A stretch of 15,336 nucleotides of DNA, from contig JBBDRO010000104.1 in the NCBI GenBank assembly GCA_040905425.1, positions 1 to 15,336 on the forward strand, given 5' to 3'. The notes beneath the pieces were generated by a model. It was not told the DNA's origin and made no database searches. It saw only the letters and a program-made list of their open reading frames with translations. The position numbers were made by a program, and so were the translations under genes. Source of the DNA: Gemmatimonadota bacterium. GTDB taxonomy: Bacteria; Gemmatimonadota; Gemmatimonadetes; Longimicrobiales; RSA9. Below, one piece after another: positions 1,511 to 12,772 of this stretch. Numbering within the stretch: the stretch's first letter is position 1; each line of letters begins with the position of its first letter.

Positions 1511-3673
1511 CTACCTGCCCGGCCGGTACGCCCGCTCCAGGTTGGCCTCCACGTCCGCGCGGTAGAAGAACACGTCGCGCAGAAAGCCCATGGCGTAGTG
1601 CGCCGCCTGGTCGTTGAAGTGCGGGGAGGCGGGGTCGCCGCTCTCGCCGCCGGCGGAGACGGCGCGGGCCCGCACGCGGTCCCCGAACTCCACCACCGCC
1701 ACGAAGCTGTTGCCGCTGGTGCCGTACCAGCGCTTGGTGTTCGGGTAGGGGCGCGCGCCGAAGGAGGCCAGCGAGCCCCAGCGCGCCGAGGTGAAAGGCA
1801 CCGGGATGCTGTGCGCGTCGTCGTCGAAGTTGGGGCCGATCTCCGGGCTGATGCGCTGGAAGCGGTTGATCTCCCCCCAGGGCGTCTCCCAGGTGCCGAA
1901 TTCGGCGCTCAGCCGGTCGATGGCTGCCTCCAGGGCGTCCAGCGGCTGCGCGGCCGAGTTCCGCTCGCTGCCCCAGAAGATGGCCAGCGCGGTGGCCACG
2001 GAGCTCACGCCCCAGCGGTAGTCCCAGGCGCGCAGCACCCCGATGGGCGCGGCCAGCGCCGCGCGCCGGGGGCTCGAGGCGGGCAGCGCGTCGTAGGCAC
2101 CGATGAGCGCGGGCAGCGTCTCTTCGAAGGCGGGCAGGTAGCTGTCGTAGGCCAGCTCGATCAGCCCCTCCAGCGTGAAGTCATCCTTGCCGGGGAGCAG
2201 CATGAGCGCGTGCTTGCCGCGCGCGTTCTCGGTCTGATAGGTGTCCACGTAGGCCGGATAGTCCTCGCGCCGCGGGCTGTCGGGGCCGGCGGCCGACCAC
2301 GGGAAATTGTTCGTGTTGAACGCCCAGCCCACGGAGGGATTGATGGCGTTGGGGGTCTCCTCCAGCGCTAGCACGCCGCGGTACGCCGTGGCCGGGTCGC
2401 TTCCATCCACCGGCTCGCTCCAGTCGAAGCGCGGGTCCCGGCGCGGGATGTAGTTGGAGTGCAGGTAGGCAATGTTGCCGGCCGCGTCGGCGTAGAGCGT
2501 GTTGTTGGACGAGTTGGTGTGCAGCTCCATGATCTCCAGGTACGCGTCCAGGTCGGCGGCTTTGGTGCGCGCGTAGGACTGGATGAGCGCCTCGACGGGC
2601 TGCCACATGAGGCTCACCGAGAGCCAGCGCTCGCCCTCCCGCCCCACCACGGGGCCGCGGTGCGTGTGGTAGACCGTGAAGCTGCGTTCGGCCATGCCCG
2701 TGTCCGTGCGATACGGGATGGTGACGGCGCGCGCGCTCACCGGCCGCTCCTCCGCACCGTAGCGGTAGAACCAGCGCTCGCCGCGCCGCACGGGCGTCTC
2801 CAGGAACCAGTCGATGTTGTCCACGCCGCTCGAGGTGTGCATCCAGCCGGCCGTCTCGTTGAAGCCCTGGTAGATGAAGAACTGTCCCCAGGTCACGGCG
2901 CCGTAGGCGTTCAGCCCCTCCTGGCTCACCATCTGGAGCTCGGAGCGGAAGTAGAAGGAGGTGTGCGGGTTGATGAGCAGCAGGGCGTTGCCGTTCAGCG
3001 TGTTCTCCGGCGCGATGGAGATGCCGTTGGAGCCGCGCGGCTCCGGCTCGAATTCCAGGACACCGGACGCGGGCGCCTCCGCGGGCATCTCAGGGGCCGG
3101 CTCCGCGGGCGGCTCGTCCCCGTAAAAGGCCTCCAGCGTGCGCAGGTTGACGCGCTCGATGTCCCCACCGATGCTGCCCTCGGTGAAGGAGAGCGCCATC
3201 CACGGCTCGTAGCGCGGGATGCCCTCGGGCTCCACCTGGGGGTGCGTGTGCAGGTAGTAGTTCAGCCCGTCCGCGAAGGCGTCCATGAGGTCACGGAGCC
3301 AGGCGGGGCTGCGGGCGTACTGGGCCTGCAGGCTGTCCGGGTCGGCCCACAGGCGGGCGCGCAGGTCCCACCAGAGGGCGCGCTCGCCGTCCACGACCGC
3401 GGTGCGGCCCAGGGAGCGGCGGTAGTTGGCCGCCACGCGCGGGTAGTCATCCTCCGCCTGCGCGTACACCATGCCGAAGACGGCGTCCGCGTCCGTCCGC
3501 CCGTAGACGTGCGCGATGCCCCAGCGGTCCCGCTGGATGGTGACGTCGGCGGCCTGGGCCTCCCAGCGCGCGAGCTCGGCGGCGGAGGGCGCCTGGGCCG
3601 CGAGCGGTGGCGCGTGGTGCAGGAGGGCGGGCAGGGCAATGGCCAGAGCGGCCAGCGTGCGGATGCGGATCAT
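1511..3673 (-). CDS. Penicillin acylase family (Ntn-hydrolase) secreted amidase, 720 aa
   Basis: Signal peptide MIRIRTLAALAIALPALL...LAAQ. Alpha-subunit motif IQRDRWGIAHVYG...FGMVYAQAED. Beta-subunit start GSNG (catalytic Ser), LLLINPH, NTNN, C-terminal GGESGDPASPHFNDQA. The ORF-track extension to 4345 overlaps the permease in another frame. Confidence 0.93.
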   Translation of the reverse strand: MIRIRTLAALAIALPALLHHAPPLAAQAPSAAELARWEAQAADVTIQRDRWGIAHVYGRTDADAVFGMVYAQAEDDYPRVAANYRRSLGRTAVVDGERALWWDLRARLWADPDSLQAQYARSPAWLRDLMDAFADGLNYYLHTHPQVEPEGIPRYEPWMALSFTEGSIGGDIERVNLRTLEAFYGDEPPAEPAPEMPAEAPASGVLEFEPEPRGSNGISIAPENTLNGNALLLINPHTSFYFRSELQMVSQEGLNAYGAVTWGQFFIYQGFNETAGWMHTSSGVDNIDWFLETPVRRGERWFYRYGAEERPVSARAVTIPYRTDTGMAERSFTVYHTHRGPVVGREGERWLSVSLMWQPVEALIQSYARTKAADLDAYLEIMELHTNSSNNTLYADAAGNIAYLHSNYIPRRDPRFDWSEPVDGSDPATAYRGVLALEETPNAINPSVGWAFNTNNFPWSAAGPDSPRREDYPAYVDTYQTENARGKHALMLLPGKDDFTLEGLIELAYDSYLPAFEETLPALIGAYDALPASSPRRAALAAPIGVLRAWDYRWGVSSVATALAIFWGSERNSAAQPLDALEAAIDRLSAEFGTWETPWGEINRFQRISPEIGPNFDDDAHSIPVPFTSARWGSLASFGARPYPNTKRWYGTSGNSFVAVVEFGDRVRARAVSAGGESGDPASPHFNDQAAHYAMGFLRDVFFYRADVEANLERAYRPGR

Positions 3674-3725
3674 GGCTCGGCCTCTGCGCGCGAGGAGCAA
3701 CGGGTCCGGTCGGTCCGGATGGGGA

Positions 3726-3754
3726 AATCTGGCTGGCGGGGCGAGGGGATGCAA
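3726..3754 (-). promoter_or_regulatory. Possible promoter TTGCAT-N17-CAGATT for the acylase gene
   Basis: Minus strand reads TTGCAT cccctcgccccgccagc CAGATT, about 50 nt upstream of the ATG at 3673. The -10 box has C instead of T at its first position. Confidence 0.4.
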
Positions 3755-3783
3755 TCGAGCGGCGGCTCCGGCCCGACGGGCGC

Positions 3784-5007
3784 CTACTCGCCGCGCAGCG
3801 CCTCGATCGGGTCGAGCAGGGAGGCACGAAACGCGGGGTAGGCACCGAAGAAAGCGCTCACCAGCAACGCGAAGGAGAACGAGAGCGCCACGGAGAAGGG
3901 CTCCACCTGGATCGGCCAGTCGGTGGCCATGCCGATGCCGACCGCGCCGCCGAGCCCCAGCGCTACGCCCGTCAGTCCTCCGGCCATGCCGAGCATGGCG
4001 GCTTCGGTCAGGAACTGAGTACGCACGTCCCGCCGCCGCGCTCCCACGGCCAGCCGCAGGCCGATCTCCCGGGTACGCTCCCGCACTGTCATGAGCATGA
4101 CCGCCAGAATGCCCACGCCGCCCACCAGGAGGGAGACGGCCGCGATGCCGCCCACGAGGGTGGTGAAGGTGTCCCCGATCTCCTGGTGGGCCGCCATGAC
4201 CTCCACCTGGGTACGGAGCTCGAAGTCGTCGTCCGCGCCGGTCCGCTCCAGCCCATGTACGTCGCGCAGCAGCCAGCGCACCTGCTCCACGGCGCTCTCC
4301 AGTTGGTTGCCGTCCCGGGCACGCAGATAGATCCCACCGAGCCACGCCTGATTCATGACCCGGCGCAGGGCTGTGCGCAGGGGGATCATCACTACGTCAT
4401 CCTGGTCGGTACCGGAGGCATCGACCCCACGCGGCCGCAGCACGCCAATCACCTCGAAGGGCACGGTGCCGATCGAGACCCGCCGACCGACGGGCGTCAC
4501 GTCACCGAAGAGCGCCCGCGCCACGGCGGGGCCCAGTACCACGCTGCGCCCCGCCGTGAGTTCGTCCTGATCTGTGTAGAAGGTCCCCGCGGCCACGCTC
4601 ACATTGAGCACCCGCAGGACGTCCGGCGTGACGCCGAGGACAGTGGTCGTGGCGGACCTGCCGTCGGCGGTCAGAGGCATCCGCCGGCTGGACCAGGGAG
4701 CGCTCGCCAGGATCTGTGGTACCCCTTCGACAATGGCCTCGCCGTCCTGCGGGACGAGCGTCGTGACGGTGCCTCTCACCTGAGCCCGACCGGTACTTGA
4801 GCGGATCTGAGCGGGCGTCACCATAATGAGATCCGTGCCCATGGCCTCGATCCGGCGCATCACATCCTGCCGGGCGCCGTGACCCACCGCCACCATGGAT
4901 ATGACGGCGGACACACCCATGACGATGCCCAGGAGGGAGAGCGCCGTGCGCATCCGATGGGCGGCGAGCTGGCGCGCCGAGATGCGCAGCCCGCGCAGCA
5001 CCTTCAT
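3784..5007 (-). CDS. ABC transporter permease, MacB/FtsX family (407 aa)
   Basis: N-terminal RTALSLLGIVMGVSAV transmembrane helix, large periplasmic domain, C-terminal VRERTREIGLRLAVGA...QFLTEA...YPAFRASLLDPIEALR. Confidence 0.95.
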   Translation of the reverse strand: MKVLRGLRISARQLAAHRMRTALSLLGIVMGVSAVISMVAVGHGARQDVMRRIEAMGTDLIMVTPAQIRSSTGRAQVRGTVTTLVPQDGEAIVEGVPQILASAPWSSRRMPLTADGRSATTTVLGVTPDVLRVLNVSVAAGTFYTDQDELTAGRSVVLGPAVARALFGDVTPVGRRVSIGTVPFEVIGVLRPRGVDASGTDQDDVVMIPLRTALRRVMNQAWLGGIYLRARDGNQLESAVEQVRWLLRDVHGLERTGADDDFELRTQVEVMAAHQEIGDTFTTLVGGIAAVSLLVGGVGILAVMLMTVRERTREIGLRLAVGARRRDVRTQFLTEAAMLGMAGGLTGVALGLGGAVGIGMATDWPIQVEPFSVALSFSFALLVSAFFGAYPAFRASLLDPIEALRGE

Positions 5008-5017
5008 GGCGCGGCAC

Positions 5018-6247
5018 TCACGAGCGGAGAGCGTCCACGGGGGTCATCGCGGCCGCCCTGCCGGCGGGGTACGAGCCGGCCACGAGCCCCACCAGCGCGG
5101 CGAAGCCGATCCCCAGCATCAGCACGTGCCATGTGAGAAGGGCGGGCGTGCCGGTGAACCATTCCAGGACGCGATTGCCCAGGGCGCCAAGGAGGATGCC
5201 CCCCACGCCGCCCAGCACGGTCACCGCCACCGCTTCCACCAGGAACTGGCCACGGATGTGCCGGCCTCTTGCCCCGACCGCCTTGCGGAGGCCGATCTCG
5301 CCGCGGCGCTCGCCCACGGACAGCAACATGACGTTGGCTACCACCACGCCGCCGACCACCAGGGCAATGCCCGCCACGAGGATCAGGAAGAGGTTGAAGG
5401 TCCCCTGCATCTCCTCCACCATGCCCGTGACCTCGGTGGGGGTGGTGACCCGGAAGTCATCCTGGGTGCCCGGCGCGAGTCCATGCCGCTCGCGCAGGAG
5501 GGCAGCGATATCGGCGGCGGCGGGTTCCATGTCCGCGAGTGTGCGCACCCCCACTCGGACGCCCGAGAGGTAGTCCACGCCGGCCACCCGCCGCATATAG
5601 GTGCTGAGGGGCACGAAGACCCGGTTGTCCATGTCTCCGCCACCCGCGCTGGCCCCCTTTGCGAGCATGACCCCCGTGATTTCGAAGGGCACGCCCCCCA
5701 CCTGAATCACCTCCCCCATGGGGTCTTCGTCACCGAAGAGCGCCTGAGCCACGGTGGGCCCGATGGCCGCGGTCCGCGCCATGAGCTGGTCATCCTGATG
5801 CGTGATGAACGCGCCCCGCTCCACGTGCCAGTCCCACAGCTCCGCCCACTCGGGGGTCACCCCGAAGACGGGGGCCGCAAGGGTCTGGTCGCGCCACCGG
5901 ATCTCGGTCTGGCCGGCCCGCGCGAAGGGCGCCACACCCCGCACGCCGGCAACCTCCGCAAGGATGGCCTTGCCGTCATCGAGCTTCAGGGTGGCGGTCA
6001 CGGCATCGCCCGCCCCGCTGCCACCCATCCGGGTCTGATCCGTCGGCCCGCCGGCCCAGACCATCATGTTCTCCAGGCCGAAGACGCGCACCCGCTCCAT
6101 GATGCGCTCCCGCGCCCCCATGCCCGCGGACAGCACCACCGTGAGGACGGTGATGGCCACGGCGATGCCCGCCGCCATCAGGGCCGTGCGGAGGCGATTG
6201 CGATCGAGGGCCCGGAGCGCCTGGGCCACCATGCGCCGCGTCCTCAT
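5018..6247 (-). CDS. ABC transporter permease, MacB/FtsX family (409 aa)
   Basis: NRLRTALMAAGIAVAI; SVGERRGEIGLRKAVGA...QFLVEA...YPAGRAAAMTPVDALR. ATGA overlap with the ATPase stop. Confidence 0.95.
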   Translation of the reverse strand: MRTRRMVAQALRALDRNRLRTALMAAGIAVAITVLTVVLSAGMGARERIMERVRVFGLENMMVWAGGPTDQTRMGGSGAGDAVTATLKLDDGKAILAEVAGVRGVAPFARAGQTEIRWRDQTLAAPVFGVTPEWAELWDWHVERGAFITHQDDQLMARTAAIGPTVAQALFGDEDPMGEVIQVGGVPFEITGVMLAKGASAGGGDMDNRVFVPLSTYMRRVAGVDYLSGVRVGVRTLADMEPAAADIAALLRERHGLAPGTQDDFRVTTPTEVTGMVEEMQGTFNLFLILVAGIALVVGGVVVANVMLLSVGERRGEIGLRKAVGARGRHIRGQFLVEAVAVTVLGGVGGILLGALGNRVLEWFTGTPALLTWHVLMLGIGFAALVGLVAGSYPAGRAAAMTPVDALRS

Positions 6248-7011
6248 GGCCGGGCCTGGCCGGCTACGGCTGCCACGGCGGTGTCCGGCGCGGCGGTGTC
6301 CGGCGCGGCGGTGTCCGGCGCGGCGGTGTCCGCGGCAAGGCGGCCGTCCCGCACCGTGATGACGCGCCGGGCATACCCGGCCACCTCGGCGTCGTGGGTC
6401 ACGACCAACACGGTGCGGCCGCGGCGGTTCAGTTCCGCAAAAAGGGCCATGATTTCCTGGCTGGACGTGGAATCCAGGTTGCCCGTGGGCTCGTCGGCAA
6501 GGAGGATTTCGGGATCGTTGACGAGCGCGCGCGCAATGGCCACGCGCTGCTGCTGCCCCCCCGACAACTCGCCTGGATGGTGGTCGTAGCGGTCGGCCGG
6601 CAGACCCACGGTAGCAAGGGCAGCGCGGGCGGGGCCGGCCAGGTCCGTACGGTCGGTGTAGAGGAGCGGCAGCTCCACGTTCTCCAGCGCGGAGGTGCGC
6701 GGCAGGAGGTTGAAGCTCTGGAAGACGAAGCCCACCATGCGGCTCCGCACATCGGCGAGCGCGTCATGGCTCAGCCCGCTCACCTCGCGCCCGTCCAGCA
6801 AGACGCGCCCCGACGTGGGCTGGTCCAGGCACCCCAGGATGTTCATGAGGGTGGACTTGCCCGACCCCGAGGCTCCCACGAGCGCCACGAACTCGCCTTT
6901 CCGGATCTCCAGACTCACGTCCGAGAGGGCGGCCACGCGCACGCCGCCATCCTTCTCGAAGATCCTGGTCACATTGCTGGCCTGGATCAGCGGTCGTTCC
7001 ATGGTGTCCAT
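6244..7011 (-). CDS. ABC transporter ATP-binding protein, MacB/LolD type (255 aa; alternative start 7002)
   Basis: Walker A GASGSGKST, Q-loop FVFQSFNL, signature LSGGQQQRVAIARA, Walker B ILLADEPTGNLD, H-loop VTHD. Confidence 0.96.
   Translation of the reverse strand: MDTMERPLIQASNVTRIFEKDGGVRVAALSDVSLEIRKGEFVALVGASGSGKSTLMNILGCLDQPTSGRVLLDGREVSGLSHDALADVRSRMVGFVFQSFNLLPRTSALENVELPLLYTDRTDLAGPARAALATVGLPADRYDHHPGELSGGQQQRVAIARALVNDPEILLADEPTGNLDSTSSQEIMALFAELNRRGRTVLVVTHDAEVAGYARRVITVRDGRLAADTAAPDTAAPDTAAPDTAVAAVAGQARP
6276..6332. repeat. ~3.8 x 15-bp coding tandem repeat (CGGCGGTGTCCGGCG) giving a DTAAP tail on the ATPase
   Basis: Identical units at 6276, 6291 and 6306 plus a partial unit at 6321; protein reads DTAAP-DTAAP-DTAAP-DTAVA. 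Confidence 0.9.
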
Positions 7012-7012
7012 C

Positions 7013-8062
7013 CTATGAGGTGGGGAGCAGGATGCGTTCGCCCTCGGCCAGGCCCGCCGTGATCTCCGTCCAGCCGCTCTGCGTCCAACCCACCCGCACG
7101 CTCCGGCGCGTGGCTGTGCCGTCCACCAGCACCGTGACGAAACGCTCGGCTCGCTCGCGGCCCACCGCCACCGCGGGCACCGCCAGGACAGCCGCTCTGG
7201 GTTCGAGGACGATCGTCACCGCCGCCGTCATCTCCGGGCGGAGCTCCTGGCCCTTCCGGTCGATAATCCGCACGGTCACCACGTAATTGACCACGTTGTC
7301 CTGGATCACGGCCTTGGGGTAGATGGCCGTCACCTGGCCCGGAAATTCCTCGGCCGGGTAACTGTCCACGGAGAAGCGGACCGCCTGGCCCTCCCGGACG
7401 CGGCCGATGTCAGTCTCGTCCACGTAGGCCTGGAGCTCGAGACGCTCCAGATCGATGATGTTGACGAAGGTGGGAGAGGCAAAGCTGGCGGCCACCGTCT
7501 CGCCTTCCTGCGTGGCCACGGACGCAACTACCCCACTGATGGGAGCGGTGATGCGGGCGTAAGAGAGCTGTATGCGGGTGGATTCCAGGACGGCGCGGGC
7601 CAGCTTTTCCTGGGCCCTGGCCACCTCGAGGGCGGCACGGGCGGCGTCCACTTCCTGGCGGGAGACAAAGGACCGACTGCCCAGTGCCGCGAGATGCTCC
7701 AGGTTGGTGCTGGCCAGCTCGGCCTCCACCCGCGCCCGGTCCAGGGCGGCTTCGTTCTGGACCAGGCGGGCGCGGAACTCGGCGTCGTCGATCTCCGCGA
7801 TCACATCACCGGCCCGCACATGGTCGCCGATATTGGCGCGGAGGCGCCGCACCACTCCGGATACGCGCGACCCGACCTTCACCTCCGCGCCGACCATGGG
7901 CCGAACGACACCCATGGCCATGACGGTGGCGCTTATGTCCCTGCGGCTGACCGTGTAGACTTCGGGCGCCGTGCCCTCCGCCTGCCCGTCCCCGCCCAGC
8001 ACGAGCCAACCTCCGCCCGCCGCCACCAGCAGAGCCACACCGCCCACCCACCACCGACCCAT
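7013..8062 (-). CDS. Periplasmic adaptor (membrane fusion protein), MacA-like (349 aa)
   Basis: N-terminal membrane anchor. Lipoyl halves EVKVGSRVSGVV...GDHVRAGDVIAEID and ITAPISGVV...EGETV flank an alpha-hairpin. Also VDETDIGRVREGQ and LRPEMTA. Confidence 0.95.
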   Translation of the reverse strand: MGRWWVGGVALLVAAGGGWLVLGGDGQAEGTAPEVYTVSRRDISATVMAMGVVRPMVGAEVKVGSRVSGVVRRLRANIGDHVRAGDVIAEIDDAEFRARLVQNEAALDRARVEAELASTNLEHLAALGSRSFVSRQEVDAARAALEVARAQEKLARAVLESTRIQLSYARITAPISGVVASVATQEGETVAASFASPTFVNIIDLERLELQAYVDETDIGRVREGQAVRFSVDSYPAEEFPGQVTAIYPKAVIQDNVVNYVVTVRIIDRKGQELRPEMTAAVTIVLEPRAAVLAVPAVAVGRERAERFVTVLVDGTATRRSVRVGWTQSGWTEITAGLAEGERILLPTS

Positions 8063-8124
8063 GATCGCCGCTTCCCCGAGGAATCCCGCCTACTGTGGTA
8101 CAGAGGTGCGCGGGGGCGCGGACG

Positions 8125-8322
8125 TTAAGCCGAACCCGCCTGCGGCTGCTGCGCGGCCGGGACCCCGGAAGTATCCGCCGTCGCCTCCTCCTCCGCCGCG
8201 GCGTGCCGGCGCTGCACCAGATAGGTGGCCAGGAAGAGCAGCAGCACCACCACCACGGTGGCGGGGATGAGGCGGGGCAGGCGGATGCGGCGCCGCTGGC
8301 CGGGCGGGGCAGGTTCATTCAT
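8125..8322 (-). CDS. Small hypothetical single-pass membrane protein (65 aa)
   Basis: Basic N-terminus (RRRIRLPR), hydrophobic stretch LIPATVVVVLLLFLATYLV, polar tail. Fills the gap between csp and the adaptor gene in the same orientation; GGAGG 13 nt upstream. Confidence 0.55.
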   Translation of the reverse strand: MNEPAPPGQRRRIRLPRLIPATVVVVLLLFLATYLVQRRHAAAEEEATADTSGVPAAQQPQAGSA

Positions 8323-8349
8323 GCGGATAGCTCAACCTCCGGGCACGCC

Positions 8350-8379
8350 AAAGGGCTCCCCGGCGGGAGCCGGGGAGCC
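8350..8379 (-). terminator. Probable intrinsic terminator of the csp gene
   Basis: Perfect 11-bp stem GGCTCCCCGGC (8354-8364) / GCCGGGGAGCC (8369-8379) with a 4-nt loop, followed by CTTT on the minus strand, 26 nt after the csp stop. Confidence 0.7.
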
Positions 8380-8405
8380 ACTTCGAACGGCGACATTCTG
8401 GTTGG

Positions 8406-8621
8406 TTAGGCTTCCAGCCGCGTGACGTTCTCGGCGCGGGGGCCCTTCGTATCCTGAACGAGGTCGAACTCGACCCGCTCGCCTGGCGAGAGGGACTTGA
8501 AACCCGTACCCTCGATCGCGGAGTGGTGGACGAAAACGTCCTTGTCACCCTCGTCGGGCTTGATGAAGCCGAAGCCCTTGTCATCCATGAAGCGTTCCAC
8601 CGTGCCAGTCACTCGTGCCAT
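8406..8621 (-). CDS. csp: Cold-shock domain protein (71 aa)
   Basis: [20 protein letters not shown]...DVFVHHSAI...GFKSL...VEF...KGPRAENV, with RNP1 (KGFGFI) and RNP2 (VFVH). The ATG at 8621 gives the canonical length. Confidence 0.95.
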
Positions 8622-8781
8622 CTCGTCAACCCGTCCGTTCGAGTAGCTACTTACCTGCCCCACACATATGAGGCCTGCAAGCATCGTACTTGATCGCGCT
8701 GAGCGCAAGGCTCGGAGAAAAAAAACGTTGACCGGAGGGGGTTTTTCGGGTCAGGTGCGGACGGCTGGAAACGCGCGCGCA

Positions 8782-8903: not shown

Positions 8904-9602
8904 ATGGCTGGGTTCGAGGACGAGATCGAGGACGAGGTCGAGGACCAGACAGTGGACGCGGTGCCCTATCCCGTGGCCGTGGACATCAAGGCCGCTACCC
9001 ACGAGCGGAACCGCCTCACGGCGGCCTTCCGCTTCTTCCTGGCCCTGCCGCACATCTTCCTGGTGGGCGGGCCGGTGGCCATGGTCTTTGCCACCGACTG
9101 GGGCTCGGACTCCCACCTGGAGTTCGGCTACGGCTCGGCCGGCCTGCTCGGCGCCGTGGCCGCCCTGGTGGCGGTGATTGCCTGGTGCTTCATTGTCTTC
9201 ACCACCCGCCACCCGGACGGGCTCTGGAAGCTGGCCGCCTTCTACCTGCGCTGGCGCGTGCGGGCCATTGCCTACATGACCCTGCTGCGTGACGAGTACC
9301 CCCCGTTCGGCGACGGCGAGTATCCCGCCGAACTGGTGCTCTCCATGCCGGAGGGCGAGCGTGACCGGGTGAGCGTCTTCTTCCGCCTCTTCCTGGCCAT
9401 TCCCCACCTCTTCATCCTGTGGTTCCTGAGCCTGGCGTGGGGCGTCACCACGGCCATTGCCTGGGTGGTGATCCTGCTGACGGGGCGCTACCCGGAAGGG
9501 CTCTACGGCTTTGCCATCGGCGTGCTGGCCTGGAGCATCCGCGTGGAGGCCTACCTGCTGCTGCTGCGCGACGAGTACCCGCCGTTCACGCTGCGCGCGT
9601 GA
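8904..9602 (+). CDS. DUF4389 domain membrane protein with two domain copies (232 aa)
   Basis: Strong RBS GGAGGTGA. Two repeats of R..v.FR.FLA.PH...FT/LTGR.P.GL...RV.AY..LLRDEYPPF. Confidence 0.9.
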   Translation: MAGFEDEIEDEVEDQTVDAVPYPVAVDIKAATHERNRLTAAFRFFLALPHIFLVGGPVAMVFATDWGSDSHLEFGYGSAGLLGAVAALVAVIAWCFIVFTTRHPDGLWKLAAFYLRWRVRAIAYMTLLRDEYPPFGDGEYPAELVLSMPEGERDRVSVFFRLFLAIPHLFILWFLSLAWGVTTAIAWVVILLTGRYPEGLYGFAIGVLAWSIRVEAYLLLLRDEYPPFTLRA

Positions 9603-9703
9603 GGTGAGGGGGGCGGCGCACGTGAGGTGAGGGCTGCGCGCGTGAGGTGAGGGTGGCGCGCGTGAGGTGAGGGTGGCGCGCGTGAGGTGAGGGTGGCGCG
9701 CGT
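9594..9703. repeat. Five-copy ~20-bp tandem repeat (CGCGCGTGAGGTGAGGGTGG) starting across the DUF4389 stop codon
   Basis: The core CGTGAGGTGAGGG occurs at 9598, 9621, 9641, 9661 and 9681; the last three units are identical. Confidence 0.95.
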
Positions 9704-9761
9704 CGCCGCGCACACCCGGCGCGGCAGCCCGCCCCCCGTTGTCCCGCGCGGCGCCCATGCC

Positions 9762-9929
9762 CTAGTGATGTGTCGCAGAAGTCACGTTGCATTCGGATCC
9801 GGCTGCATCCCAGCCAGCGTCGTTGCTCGTCGTCGGCATAGCTACGGCTATGCTCTCCTCCTCGCGCCTAGCTGGCCGGGCGCATCCGGCCCCTCGGTGC
9901 GACACGGGACTTCTGCGACACATCACTAG
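9762..9929. mobile_element. MITE-like element 1 (168 bp) with a perfect 22-bp terminal inverted repeat
   Basis: CTAGTGATGTGTCGCAGAAGTC (9762-9783) is the exact reverse complement of GACTTCTGCGACACATCACTAG (9908-9929). TA at both ends, no coding capacity, nested internal palindromes. Confidence 0.8.
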
Positions 9930-10089
9930 TGTACTGACCCACGAGTTCGCCGGCATTCGAAGCCCGCTGCATCCCACATCGCTGCGTTGCTCCTCCTCGA
10001 CGTAGCGCTGCTACGCCTTCGTCGTCGCGCCTTGCGCTGCGGGCGCATCGAACTTCTCGGTGCTCGCCGACTCATGGGTCAGTACACTA
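9927..10089. mobile_element. MITE-like element 2 (163 bp) with a 19/20 terminal inverted repeat, sharing a TA with element 1
   Basis: TAGTGTACTGACCCACGAGT (9927-9946) pairs with ACTCATGGGTCAGTACACTA (10070-10089) with one mismatch. The internal core 9953-10063 is colinear with 9789-9900 of element 1. Confidence 0.8.
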
Positions 10090-10093
10090 ACTT
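10088..10093 (+). promoter_or_regulatory. Putative -10 box TAACTT 7 nt upstream of the ATPase ATG (leaderless start)
   Basis: TAACTT ccgcgct ATG with no Shine-Dalgarno. The same hexamer appears in the predicted promoter at 1470-1475. Confidence 0.55.
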
Positions 10094-10100
10094 CCGCGCT

Positions 10101-11723
10101 ATGGGCCAGACGCGAGTAGACCTGCTGCACCTCCTGGAGGACCTCCGCGACGCCTATCCCGGCGCGCTGGAGGAGACCATCGTGGGCGAGACGGTGGCCA
10201 ACGCCCTCGACTCCGGTGCCGACCGCATCTCCTTCAGCGCCGATCCCGCCGCCGCCACGCTCACCATCGTGGACGACGGCGCCGGCATGTCGCGCGCCCA
10301 GCTGCGCCGCTTCCACGACCTGGCGGCTACCTCCAAGCGCCGGGGACGGGGGATCGGCTTCGCGGGCGTGGGGATCAAGCTGGCGCTGCTGGCGTGTGAG
10401 GACGTGGTCACGGAATCACGTCGCGGGCAGAAGTCGCTTGCAACTTCGTGGCGCCTGGCCTCGAAGCAGAAGGCACCGTGGTCGTGGGTGGACGCCCCGG
10501 GGCTGGTCGGCGGCGAGAGCGGCACCGCGGTGCGGCTGCGCCTGAGCAACGCGCTCGGCCCGCTGCTCGACCCCGGCTGGCTGGCCACCACCCTGCTGCG
10601 CAGCTTTGCCCCCCTCTTCGATCCCGCCTTCGATGACATCCTGGAGAGCGCCTACGGCCAGGGGGTGGTCTTCGAGGTGAACGGCCAGCGCGTGCCCCGG
10701 GCCTCCATGGCGCACCTGCGCATCCTGGGCGACGCGGGCATCACCGATCGCGCCGAGGTGGCGGCCCGCCTGCCGCGCAAGCGGAAGCCCTCCGCGCAGG
10801 GCTGGCTGGCGCGCGCCGACGCGCCGCTGCCGGAGGAGGAGCGCGGCGTGGCCGTGGCCACCCTGGGCAAGGTCATCAAGCGCGGCTGGGACTGGCTGGG
10901 CGTGGCGCCCACGGAGGCCGACCGCATCAGCGGGCTCATCGAGGCGCCCGGCCTGGCCGAGGCGCTCACCCTGAACAAGGGTGACTTCATCCGCACCGGC
11001 GCGCGCGGCGCCACCTACCTGGCCTATCGCAAGATCCTGCAGGAGGCCGTGAGCCAGCAGCTGGCGGCGTGGGGGGACGCGCCCGAGCCGAAGCCCGCCC
11101 GCCGCCCGCGCACGCGCCGCATGGAGAAGGACCTGGAGCGGGTGCTGGTGGACATGGCCGGAGACTTTCCGCTCATCGGTTCGCTGGTGGAGCGGCGCCG
11201 GGGCGGGCAGCGGCGCATTGCCTTCGGCGGGGGCGGGACGCCGGCGGACGGCTGGGCGCCGGGCGCGGCGCTCGAGACCACGCCCTCCCCGGATCCGGAC
11301 TCAAGCGACGGTCCCGCTTCACCCTCGCCGCCTGGCGATGCCGGCTCCGCGGACTCCGCCACATCCGCCGGCCCCGAGGGGCCGGGGTCCGCTCCGGACG
11401 GCGGAGCGGACGCCGCGCCTGCCGGCGCGGACGCCGGCGGCCTGCCCGAGCGCAAGGGCAGAAAGCAGCGCGGGCGCTACGGGCTGGAGATTGCCTTCGA
11501 GAGCCGCGGCCCCGACGCCGAACTGGCGCGCCTGGTGGAGTCCACCGTGCGGGTCAACGACGCCCACCCCGCCTACCGCCGGGCGCTGGCCGCCCGCTCC
11601 GACGGCTACCACATTGCGCTGGGCGTGGCCATGGCGCTGGCGCCGCTGGCCGCCGAGCCGGCGGCCGCGCACCGCTTCATCACGGCCTTCCTGCGGCGCT
11701 GGGGGGAGGCGGCGGAGGGGTGA
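10101..11723 (+). CDS. GHKL-fold ATPase (HATPase_c_3 / prokaryotic MORC-like), 540 aa
   Basis: Bergerat motifs ETVANALDSG, DDGAGM, SK...GFAGVGIK and GTAV, then an S5-like middle region, a P/S/A/G/D linker and a C-terminal VRVNDAHPAY module. The ORF-track extension to 9987 lies inside element 2. Confidence 0.88.
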   Translation: MGQTRVDLLHLLEDLRDAYPGALEETIVGETVANALDSGADRISFSADPAAATLTIVDDGAGMSRAQLRRFHDLAATSKRRGRGIGFAGVGIKLALLACEDVVTESRRGQKSLATSWRLASKQKAPWSWVDAPGLVGGESGTAVRLRLSNALGPLLDPGWLATTLLRSFAPLFDPAFDDILESAYGQGVVFEVNGQRVPRASMAHLRILGDAGITDRAEVAARLPRKRKPSAQGWLARADAPLPEEERGVAVATLGKVIKRGWDWLGVAPTEADRISGLIEAPGLAEALTLNKGDFIRTGARGATYLAYRKILQEAVSQQLAAWGDAPEPKPARRPRTRRMEKDLERVLVDMAGDFPLIGSLVERRRGGQRRIAFGGGGTPADGWAPGAALETTPSPDPDSSDGPASPSPPGDAGSADSATSAGPEGPGSAPDGGADAAPAGADAGGLPERKGRKQRGRYGLEIAFESRGPDAELARLVESTVRVNDAHPAYRRALAARSDGYHIALGVAMALAPLAAEPAAAHRFITAFLRRWGEAAEG

Positions 11724-12772
11724 GGACGCGCGCGTGCGTGGCCACGCTGCTGGGCGCGGGGCTGGCGGCGCTGGCAGCGGGCTGCGGCGTGCCGCACCCG
11801 TCGCCGGACGTCACCAGGATCACCGGGGCGCCGCTGCGCGCCGTGCTCATCAGTGACCTGAACGCCGCCTACGGGGCCACCGCCTATCCGGCGGAGGTCC
11901 ACCACGCCGTGCGCCACATCACCACCAGCTGGCGCCCCGACCTGGTGCTCGTGGCCGGGGACATGGTGGCGGGGCAATCCGCCGGCCTGTCTGACTCGAC
12001 CGTGCGTGCCATGTGGGATGCGTTCGACGCGGCGGTGGCGGCGCCGCTGCGCGCGGCGGGCATTCCGCTCGTGGTCACCATGGGCAACCACGACGCGTCC
12101 GCCTACCCGGCGCATGCGCGCGACCGTGCCCTGGCCGCCGCCTACTGGCGGGGCACACCGCCGCCGACCGCGCCGCTGCCCTTCGTGGAGCGCGAACACT
12201 ACCCGCTGCGCTACACGGTGGCCCGGGGTGACGTCTTCCTGGTGGCCTGGGACGCCACGCGCCAGGAGAGCGCCACCGACGCGGAGCTCCTGGACTGGCT
12301 GCGGCGCTCGCTCGCCAGCCCGGAGGCGCGGCGCGCGCGCCACCGCGTGGTGCTCGGCCATCTGCCGCTCTACGGCGTGGCCGAGGGGCGCAACCGACCG
12401 GGCGAGGTGCTGGCCGACGGGGACCGGCTGCGCCGGCAGCTCGAGGCGTGGGGCGCCACCCTCTACATCAGCGGCCACCACCATGCGTATTACCCCGGGC
12501 GCCGCGGCGGTCTGGAACTCCTGCATGCGGGGGCGGTAGGCAATGGGCCGCGGCAGCTGCTCGGCGCGCGCATGCCGCCCACCCGGACCGTGAGCGTGCT
12601 GGATTTCCTGCCGGACTCCCTGGCCGTCACCACCTACGCCATCGGCGCGGAGGCGGGCGCGCTGGAGCGGATTTCCCTGGAAGATCTGCCGCCGGTGGTG
12701 TGCGGGCACAGCGGCTGGGTGGGGCGGCGCGATCTGCCGGCGGTCGACACCGCCTGCGCGGCCAGCCGCTAG
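11720..12772 (+). CDS. Calcineurin-like metallophosphoesterase, predicted lipoprotein (350 aa)
   Basis: GTG start overlapping the ATPase TGA (GTGA), preceded by GGAG. Signal peptide ends LAAG-C. Motifs SDLN, GDMV, GNHD, GHLP, SGHHH. Confidence 0.88.
   Translation: MRTRACVATLLGAGLAALAAGCGVPHPSPDVTRITGAPLRAVLISDLNAAYGATAYPAEVHHAVRHITTSWRPDLVLVAGDMVAGQSAGLSDSTVRAMWDAFDAAVAAPLRAAGIPLVVTMGNHDASAYPAHARDRALAAAYWRGTPPPTAPLPFVEREHYPLRYTVARGDVFLVAWDATRQESATDAELLDWLRRSLASPEARRARHRVVLGHLPLYGVAEGRNRPGEVLADGDRLRRQLEAWGATLYISGHHHAYYPGRRGGLELLHAGAVGNGPRQLLGARMPPTRTVSVLDFLPDSLAVTTYAIGAEAGALERISLEDLPPVVCGHSGWVGRRDLPAVDTACAASR

Follow-up and report, generated by a model that had tools for sequence, protein, structure and literature searches.

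Why the miniature repeats of bacteria are so often palindromic over their full length, and whether they are selected as DNA, as single-stranded DNA (ssDNA) or as RNA, has been a long-standing puzzle. It is raised here by a 15,336-nt stretch of DNA (NCBI GenBank assembly GCA_040905425.1, contig JBBDRO010000104.1; the whole stretch is referred to below as the window) from an uncultured Gemmatimonadota bacterium, a member of a phylum that is abundant in soil and little studied. An earlier note had described two short hairpins on its minus strand, in each of which GA dinucleotides face each other in a ladder, and had proposed that selection acts there on a strand-specific single strand rather than on the duplex. 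The question is therefore what the ladders belong to, and in which molecular form that larger unit is kept.

Neither ladder stands on its own; each is the tip, roughly the apical third, of one of two abutting palindromic repeats of about 160 bp, named E1 and E2 below. This context was absent from the earlier note on the ladders. The repeats, their ends and their neighbours are as follows.

9765..9926, minus strand (the GA-rich, structure-bearing strand): E1, a 162-bp full-length imperfect palindrome with ends 5'-GTG...CAC-3'
9929..10087, minus strand: E2, a same-orientation paralogue of E1, 159 bp, with ends 5'-GTG...CAC-3'
9762-9787 and 9904-9929: arms of the inverted repeat of E1, 26 nt, 96% complementary
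9927-9955 and 10061-10089: arms of the inverted repeat of E2, 29 nt, 83%
9763..9764, no strand: TA at the left flank of E1, after C; reads ccC-TA-GTGATG
9927..9928, no strand: single TA at the junction of E1 and E2, shared by both; reads CATCAC-TA-GTGTAC
10088..10089, no strand: TA to the right of E2, before A; reads GTACAC-TA-acttcc
8904-9602, plus strand: DUF4389 gene, left neighbour of the spacer that holds E1 and E2
10101 (annotated start ATG), plus strand: HATPase_c_3 gene, right neighbour of that spacer

Read directly from the sequence, the order is C-TA-[E1]-TA-[E2]-TA-A, and C-TA-A would be the empty site before insertion. Each element is bordered by TA at both ends, either as a target duplication or as the element's own terminal TA/CTAG, and the terminal stems are perfect over 22 bp. 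The two copies agree at 110 of 165 aligned columns (about 67% identity) and take up most of the 498 bp that separate two plus-strand genes, to both of which the GA-rich strand is antisense at this locus; no third copy is found anywhere in the 15-kb window. By their terminal inverted repeats (TIRs), GTG...CAC ends and TA flanks the elements are, by analogy, MITE-like or REPIN-like, and putatively mobile.

Re-reading of the sequence bore out how the earlier note had spelled the two ladders on the minus strand (9869 to 9821 in E1 and 10033 to 9985 in E2). Three 5'-GA-3'/5'-GA-3' face-offs with single pairs between them are present in each element, and aligning the two copies confirmed that the single pairs between the rungs change from G-C in E1 to C-G in E2 and that, in alignment columns 81-94, one A-U of the apical stem in one element is G-C in the other. 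The hairpins are laid out in the following way.

9825..9865, minus strand: E1 apical hairpin, ladder GC / GA.GA / G-C / GA.GA / G-C / GA.GA / bulged A
9836-9853, minus strand: E1 apical cap, 7-bp stem GCATAGC/GCTATGC with loop CGTA
9989..10028, minus strand: E2 apical hairpin, ladder of the E1 type with both inter-rung pairs flipped to C-G
9999-10017, minus strand: E2 apical cap, 8-bp stem including one G.U, with loop AGC

In both elements the base of the ladder stem consists, on the minus strand, of two G-C/C-G pairs. The basal rung of E1 reads CGAG opposite CGAG, and at the other rungs one Watson-Crick pair stands between the GA tandems. With RNA parameters, the ladder is the minimum free energy fold of each 49-50-nt minus-strand piece, and the four pieces compare with their shuffled versions as listed here.

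E1 piece, minus strand: -17.3 kcal/mol, z -3.45, shuffles as good 0/200
E2 piece, minus strand: -17.9 kcal/mol, z -2.72, shuffles as good 2/200
E1 piece, plus strand: -15.4 kcal/mol, z -2.01, shuffles as good 9/200
E2 piece, plus strand: -12.7 kcal/mol, z -0.81, shuffles as good 44/200

When whole elements are folded, pairing probabilities are 0.93-1.00 for the GC GC base pairs and for the single pairs between the rungs, and 0.86 in E1 and 0.59 in E2 for the next pair outward of the ladder. With DNA energy parameters, a set which may lack terms for tandem GA, the ladder is predicted on neither the plus nor the minus strand. The G.A pairs of the ladder may adopt the sheared geometry, and a protein may be the putative partner of the ladder or its GA tracts.

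The flipped pairs within the ladder turn out to be a small part of a larger pattern. A minus-strand consensus of E1 and E2 contains 58 pairs, in which all 116 of 116 cells are paired; 17 of these pairs differ between the copies on both sides, five differ on one side only, in each case with G.U as one of the two states, and no pair is lost. None of 500 column shuffles matched the pairing values of the real alignment, and when the 3' partners were slid by 1-3 columns, 23-41% of cells paired. Since every helix difference between the copies is compensated, and all 22 differing pairs, well beyond those of the ladder, remain paired, the ladder flips belong to a general rule and compensatory change is a property of the whole palindrome. 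By itself such change is no proof of a structured non-coding RNA (ncRNA). The outer stem takes a large share in it, with 7 of 21 pairs changed on both sides, and the internal loops are invariant. Each flip of polarity between the GA rungs could represent one event per pair. A flip/flop inversion of the hairpin was considered as the source of the swap and dropped, as the reverse complement turns GA into TC and leaves the G-C polarity as it was. At the DNA level this covariation rests on two copies; for the pairs between the GA rungs, the flips on which the earlier note relied are thus seen in E1 and E2 and gain partial support from six translated relatives described below.

Both strands of the whole elements fold far better than shuffled sequences, the minus strand better than the plus strand. 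The values obtained with RNA parameters are given below.

E1, whole element: minus strand -105.5 kcal/mol, z -10.6; plus strand -97.5 kcal/mol, z -9.0
E2, whole element: minus strand -98.1 kcal/mol, z -10.3; plus strand -79.5 kcal/mol, z -6.6
E1/E2 consensus: minus strand -96.95 kcal/mol with 58 pairs; plus strand -70.85 kcal/mol with 52 pairs

The difference is also visible in the kinds of mismatch. Between the arms of E1 on the minus strand there are 13 G.A mismatches and one C.T, a count that covers E1 only, since automatic arm alignment mis-registers the ladder in E2. Purines make up 71-82% of the unpaired minus-strand positions (37 of 52 in E1, 40 of 49 in E2). Six blocks, each 7-11 nt long, have not changed between two copies that are otherwise about 67% identical. 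Those on the 3' side are placed as follows.

9789..9824 in E1, minus strand: conserved 3'-side blocks GAGCAACG, TGGGATGCAGC and CGAATGC, identical in E2 at about 9954-9988

The conserved 5'-side blocks, GCACCGAG, GATGCGCCCG and AGGCGCGA, face them imperfectly, and the imperfections are themselves conserved: a CCGA/GAA loop that holds a fourth tandem G.A, and two G.U pairs. Helices that drift while asymmetric loops stay fixed are the pattern of a folded single strand. What the earlier note had made of G.U pairing as a mark of strand specificity carries little weight, with 11 G.U cells in the minus-strand consensus against 9 in the plus-strand consensus. Its broader proposal of selection on a strand-specific single strand draws support from the non-Watson-Crick features conserved on one strand, and loses the nearly symmetric G.U part. 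A strand-specific single-stranded role of the elements, as RNA or as ssDNA, is plausible, though judged from few copies.

Relatives of the elements were sought in several collections. Rfam gave no match at gathering score in the window, and at E <= 10 over 9550-10150 its only match was a chance one to mir-668 outside the elements. No match was found when 9755-10095 was compared with plasmids and phages by blastn, or when the relatives P0013 and P0016 were compared with plasmids by tblastn. A genome scan with TGGGATGCAGCNGGNTNCGAA, the block best conserved between E1 and E2, returned eight loci from a collection that evidently lacks the window's own genome; all eight are chance matches, because blastn and nhmmer align only 21-27 nt around the pattern. 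Two positions of the pattern vary within the family, as the translated relatives show, so that it was too strict and the scan gives no measure of the family's rarity; CGAATGCC and CACCGAG are looser anchor blocks. Comparison of the translated minus strand with 1.84 billion protein representatives by phmmer was more productive and gave five hits at E <= 0.001, four of which are derived from the element (P0013, P0014, P0016 and P0017). The remaining one, P0015 (1078 aa, E = 1.9e-6), is a translation of an unrelated tandem array and was dropped. A word search with residues 29-86 of P0013 added P0018, which is the same locus as P0013, and P0019; the corresponding search among shorter proteins gave no candidate, and a word search with the translation of the minus-strand open reading frame (ORF) of E1 among proteins of 30-97 aa gave no relative that shares words with it.

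In all, two copies were seen in the window and six as translations with different flanks, one locus being represented twice. The records of the six come from soil-type metagenomes, five of them derived from read sets and one from a JGI/IMG contig; read-set-derived records could be chimeric at repeats, and the flanks of the relatives are to be read with that in mind. As translations of ORFs, the relatives leave one third of their bases undetermined.

Back-translated to degenerate bases and laid on the structure of E1 and E2, the relatives agree with it to a large extent. Among pairs in which both bases are determined, 70 are paired and 11 unpaired in the register of the structure, and four are scored as incompatible; with partners slid by 1-3 columns, 30-46 are paired and 49-77 unpaired, and 21-41 are incompatible. 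In the frame of P0013 both arms of the ladder consist of Asp and Glu codons, which fix GA and give the third base as Y or R. In P0013, P0018 and P0014 the 5' arm is GAY GAY GAR and the 3' arm GAR GAR GAR, the polarity of E2. P0019 agrees with P0013 in the 5' arm; a different frame runs through its 3' arm, from which G follows at both inter-rung positions. The codons of P0016 are GAR GAR GGN ... ACN GAY GAR, the polarity of E1 with two rungs only. P0017, in the third frame, likewise has two rungs only and the polarity of E1, its first inter-rung pair being compatible with G-C and its second having R opposite T. Two rungs are thus kept in all six relatives and the third in four, or in eight and six, respectively, of the eight copies that include E1 and E2. 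The first inter-rung pair is G-C or R-Y in three of these eight copies and C-G or Y-R in five. P0019 further holds the tail of one element followed directly, in the same orientation, by a second element. It is a second, independent tandem, and by eye its junction has one codon where the window has CTA, which is the same junction as in the window.

On the reading that we favour, E1 and E2 are head-to-tail copies of a small, non-coding, TA-flanked repeat, palindromic over its full length, that belongs to an uncultured Gemmatimonadota bacterium and whose family resembles MITEs in its anatomy and REPINs in the way it evolves. The ladder forms the apical third of a hairpin of about 160 nt which the minus strand of each copy can adopt. 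A set of features, namely the three GA/GA rungs, the fourth tandem G.A of CCGA/GAA, the two G.U pairs and purine-rich bulges, is conserved on one strand, and the helices between them change freely while still pairing. As the conservation is asymmetric and confined to one strand and the paired helices drift freely, the family would be constrained as a folded single strand rather than as duplex DNA; as the constraint is family-wide and independent of locus, the element most likely requires the fold in order to propagate or to be processed. The ladder and the conserved purine loops may then offer a recognition surface to a protein. Two forms of the single strand, which we hold to be about equally likely, come into question: ssDNA on which an enzyme that recognises hairpins would act, and a transcript of the GA-rich strand. 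We lean, by somewhat more than an even chance, towards this account of a MITE-like family constrained as a folded single strand, with the ladder and purine loops as a recognition surface for propagation or processing and with ssDNA and RNA on an equal footing. Several points count against it: as DNA the family is represented by two copies, G.U pairs favour neither strand, DNA parameters do not yield the ladder, the GA-rich strand runs antisense to both neighbouring genes, and neither strand has a promoter-like or terminator-like site over 9400-10400. A bolder version is conceivable and quite unlikely in our estimate: an undescribed miniature mobile element of Gemmatimonadota, bounded by TIRs and flanked by TA, that moves as a folded single strand in the manner of ssDNA (HUH-type) or RNA-level elements, and in which a protein recognises a "(GA-N)3 ladder" and a kink-like CCGA/GAA loop.

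The account that competes most seriously is that E1 and E2 are ordinary duplex cut-and-paste MITEs, IS630/Tc1-mariner-like and TA-targeting, in which only the TIRs matter, the palindrome is kept by a fold-back origin or by hairpin-templated repair, and the ladder is an inherited accident. TIRs with TA on each flank are the classic signature of such elements and require no internal fold. IS630 prefers CTAG, and a target C-TA-A, as inferred here, together with a junction that recreates CTAG would explain tandem insertion both in the window and in P0019. Moreover, according to passages of one article, long stem-loop transcripts are general in known TA-flanked bacterial MITEs (PMC2229807). However, homogenisation of the arms should erase mismatches, and the asymmetric G.A, G.U and bulge positions are instead identical in copies that have diverged at roughly one third of the remaining positions; the outer stems, which a duplex-reading DDE transposase would be expected to recognise, differ, with 7 of 21 pairs changed on both sides, and the loops are invariant, which is the reverse of the usual MITE pattern; and the 13 G.A against one C.T mismatch in E1 speak against it as well. 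Such MITEs explain the ends and the tandems well, but neither the conserved asymmetric mismatches nor the variable terminal stems, and we regard them as a possible though unlikely explanation of the whole. We hold it improbable that the locus instead carries two tandem paralogous genes for a free-standing structured ncRNA, encoded on the minus strand and not mobile. Covarying helices, conserved loops, purine-rich unpaired positions and the better fold of the minus strand would all be expected of such genes, but perfect 22-bp terminal stems, TA flanks and identical GTG/CAC ends would not; nor would copies that lie in different sequence contexts in other records, or the independent tandem of P0019. 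No promoter-like or terminator-like site is found on either strand over 9400-10400, and no Rfam family was recovered apart from the chance miRNA match in the searches given above.

A coding function was weighed too: the elements might be a small ORF or, in the manner of the RPE of Rickettsia, a palindromic insert within a reading frame, and the GAG/GAC repeats would then spell Glu and Asp runs. ORFs that pass through the elements are present in protein collections, and GAGGAGGAG and GACGACGAG translate as EEE and DDE. Yet there is no common frame: E1, E2, P0013, P0017 and P0019 are open in different frames or are frame-shifted inside the element, and the frame in which P0013 is open is interrupted by a stop in E2, for which reasons we conclude that the elements are not coding. 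The exact E1 translation is without a word-sharing relative among proteins of 30-97 aa, and the peptide W-D-A-A is lost in P0013. A small peptide WDAAG.EC in the 3' half, where a Shine-Dalgarno-like GGAGG precedes an AUG, was rejected as a candidate since P0013 keeps neither its frame nor its Trp. The coding reading is in our judgement very improbable, and no more credit is due to the idea that E1 and E2 serve site-specific recombination in the manner of integron attC sites, which are read as ssDNA hairpins. In favour of it, the elements are imperfect palindromes with strand specificity, their size is about right, and their structure is better conserved than their sequence. The core sites of attC are RYYYAAC and GTTRRRY, however, and the elements end in CTAGTG and CACTAG with neither core; no cassette ORF lies between E1 and E2, and no integrase is among the genes of the window.

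If the preferred reading of a single-strand-constrained, MITE-like family is taken up again, its nearest likenesses among known repeats can be compared. Both elements are shorter than 300 bp (162 and 159 bp), share no common reading frame and carry TIRs (26 nt at 96% and 29 nt at 83%), as MITEs do. Correia/NEMIS of Neisseria, RUP of S. pneumoniae and ERIC/IRU of enterobacteria are described, in passages of the article cited above, as non-coding repeats of 100-170 bp with TIRs and TA termini, which form a long stem-loop over the whole element when transcribed and have orientation-dependent effects as RNA (PMC2229807). E1 and E2 are like them in size, non-coding nature, TIRs, TA flanks and long stem-loop. 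They differ from them in phylum, in showing no sequence similarity (blastn against plasmids and phages) and in having internal loops that are more conserved than the TIRs and asymmetric between the arms; our literature search found no report of a (GA-N)3 ladder in Correia/NEMIS, RUP or ERIC/IRU.

REPINs, symmetric hairpins of two inverted halves as E1 and E2 are, are mobilised by RAYT tyrosine transposases. Passages of one study report compensatory changes across their hairpin and an occurrence in ordered clusters, and propose that they act as "ssDNA or mRNA" (PMC3116915). Inverted halves with compensatory changes are also what E1 and E2 have (17 of 58 pairs changed on both sides, none broken). 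In REPs, according to another study, a palindrome of 20-40 bp is marked at one end by an unpaired tag, GTAG or CGTC (PMC3733652). Such an end tag is absent from E1 and E2, whose ends are CTAGTG...CACTAG and in which GTAG is confined to the apical stem of E2 and the apical loop of E1. REPINs moreover have conserved ends and a variable spacer, whereas the outer stem is variable in E1 and E2, and no RAYT gene lies within the 15-kb window.

The ladder itself recalls ssDNA hairpins built of CGAG blocks from a human promoter repeat, in which G:C pairs alternate with sheared tandem G:A pairs in a thermally stable, non-canonical form with a period of four, two G:C and two G:A (PMC10085684). By contrast, the ladder of E1 and E2 has a period of three, sits in a bacterial repeat and has mixed rung contexts (GGAG/CGAC), with CGAG opposite CGAG only at the basal rung of E1. 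Single-stranded elements of the IS200/IS605 type lack TIRs and have distinct left and right hairpins. These elements and their miniature derivatives resemble E1 and E2 in having strand-specific imperfect hairpins, which in IS200/IS605 are recognised as such. Insertion beside a short fixed sequence, as in IS200/IS605, would give tandems in the same orientation, and both tandems, that of the window and that of P0019, are of this kind; E1 and E2 differ in their long TIRs. As in kink-turns and loop E motifs, G.A/A.G tandems adjoin a helix in E1 and E2. The conserved GCA-CCGA-GG / CC-GAA-UGC loop is like a kink-turn in outline. In a canonical kink-turn one strand is bulged by 3 nt and its partner has no bulge; the loop here is 2+1. 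We know of no described kink-turn arrangement with three stacked rungs and single pairs between them.

The hairpin-repeat type is already known from REPINs and TA-flanked MITEs, and what is new is the E1/E2 variant. A literature search found no description of such repeats in Gemmatimonadota, and "Gemmatimonad" is absent from the main text of a MITE census whose elements are listed in supplements that may include the E1/E2 family (PMC11602168). The family lends itself unusually well to asking on which strand, and on which molecular form, selection acts, because asymmetric purine-only mismatches, including a regular G.A ladder, are kept as the helices drift in a compensatory manner. The ladder is short enough for direct NMR, melting or probing experiments. 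If it should prove incidental, E1 and E2 would represent an ordinary new MITE family.

Two observations concern the neighbouring genes. A link of the locus to defence systems through the downstream HATPase_c_3 and phosphoesterase genes was considered and is unsupported, PADLOC giving one weak match (E = 0.0033). Relatives of the window's proteins that are at least 90% identical carry the name "Gemmatimonadota bacterium", and one of them starts nine residues earlier than its counterpart in the window; as these extra nine residues translate the right terminal repeat of E2, that element is present in a near-identical genome as well.

The second of the two adjoining imperfect palindromes of about 160 bp (E1, 9765-9926; E2, 9929-10087) reaches close to the annotated start of the HATPase_c_3 gene downstream, and an ATG at 10074, within the right terminal repeat of E2, lies in the same frame as this gene, the annotated start of which is at 10101. 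The near-identical protein of a metagenome-assembled genome (P0003) is annotated from the upstream ATG, at 549 aa versus 540 aa for the protein in the window. Therefore, E2 may supply nine N-terminal codons of the HATPase_c_3 protein, or it may mislead gene callers. The elements and their surroundings contain the following features.

1511-8708, minus strand: penicillin amidase, two MacB-type permeases, ABC ATPase, HlyD-type adaptor and cold-shock protein genes
6276-6332: 15-nt tandem repeat CGGCGGTGTCCGGCG, 3.8 copies, 100% matches
9593-9703: 20-nt head-to-tail repeat, consensus GCGCGCGTGAGGTGAGGGCG, 5.4 copies, 91% matches
9795-9800: 6-bp palindrome GGATCC, E1 arm
9957-9962: 6-bp palindrome TTCGAA, E2 arm
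10101-12772: HATPase_c_3 protein gene and calcineurin-like phosphoesterase ORF

The N-terminus of the 540-aa HATPase_c_3 protein is a MutL/sacsin-like GHKL ATPase, and the calcineurin-like phosphoesterase ORF comes after its gene. A comparison of this pair with defence-system models returned nothing except one weak match (E = 0.0033).

Within the elements, GGATCC in E1 and TTCGAA in E2 occupy the equivalent arm position. Self-complementary tetranucleotides (CCGG, TGCA and TCGA) recur in both arms, and as a result the arms resemble direct repeats as well as inverted repeats. P0015, which was matched by a translated minus-strand element query, is not related to E1 and E2, and the query matched it only via low-complexity R/S-rich stretches; this 1078-aa "protein" of another record is a translated tandem array with a period of about 75 residues.

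Tandem repeats lie outside the elements in the window. The DUF4389 stop codon marks the start of the 20-nt array, which runs to within about 60 bp of E1; it is unlikely to be coding, because a period of 20 nt is not divisible by three. The 15-nt repeat lies within the 3′ end of the ABC ATPase ORF (6244-7011, minus strand), the exact translation of which was absent from the protein collection searched. The minus-strand genes upstream of the elements, taken together, form an unremarkable set.
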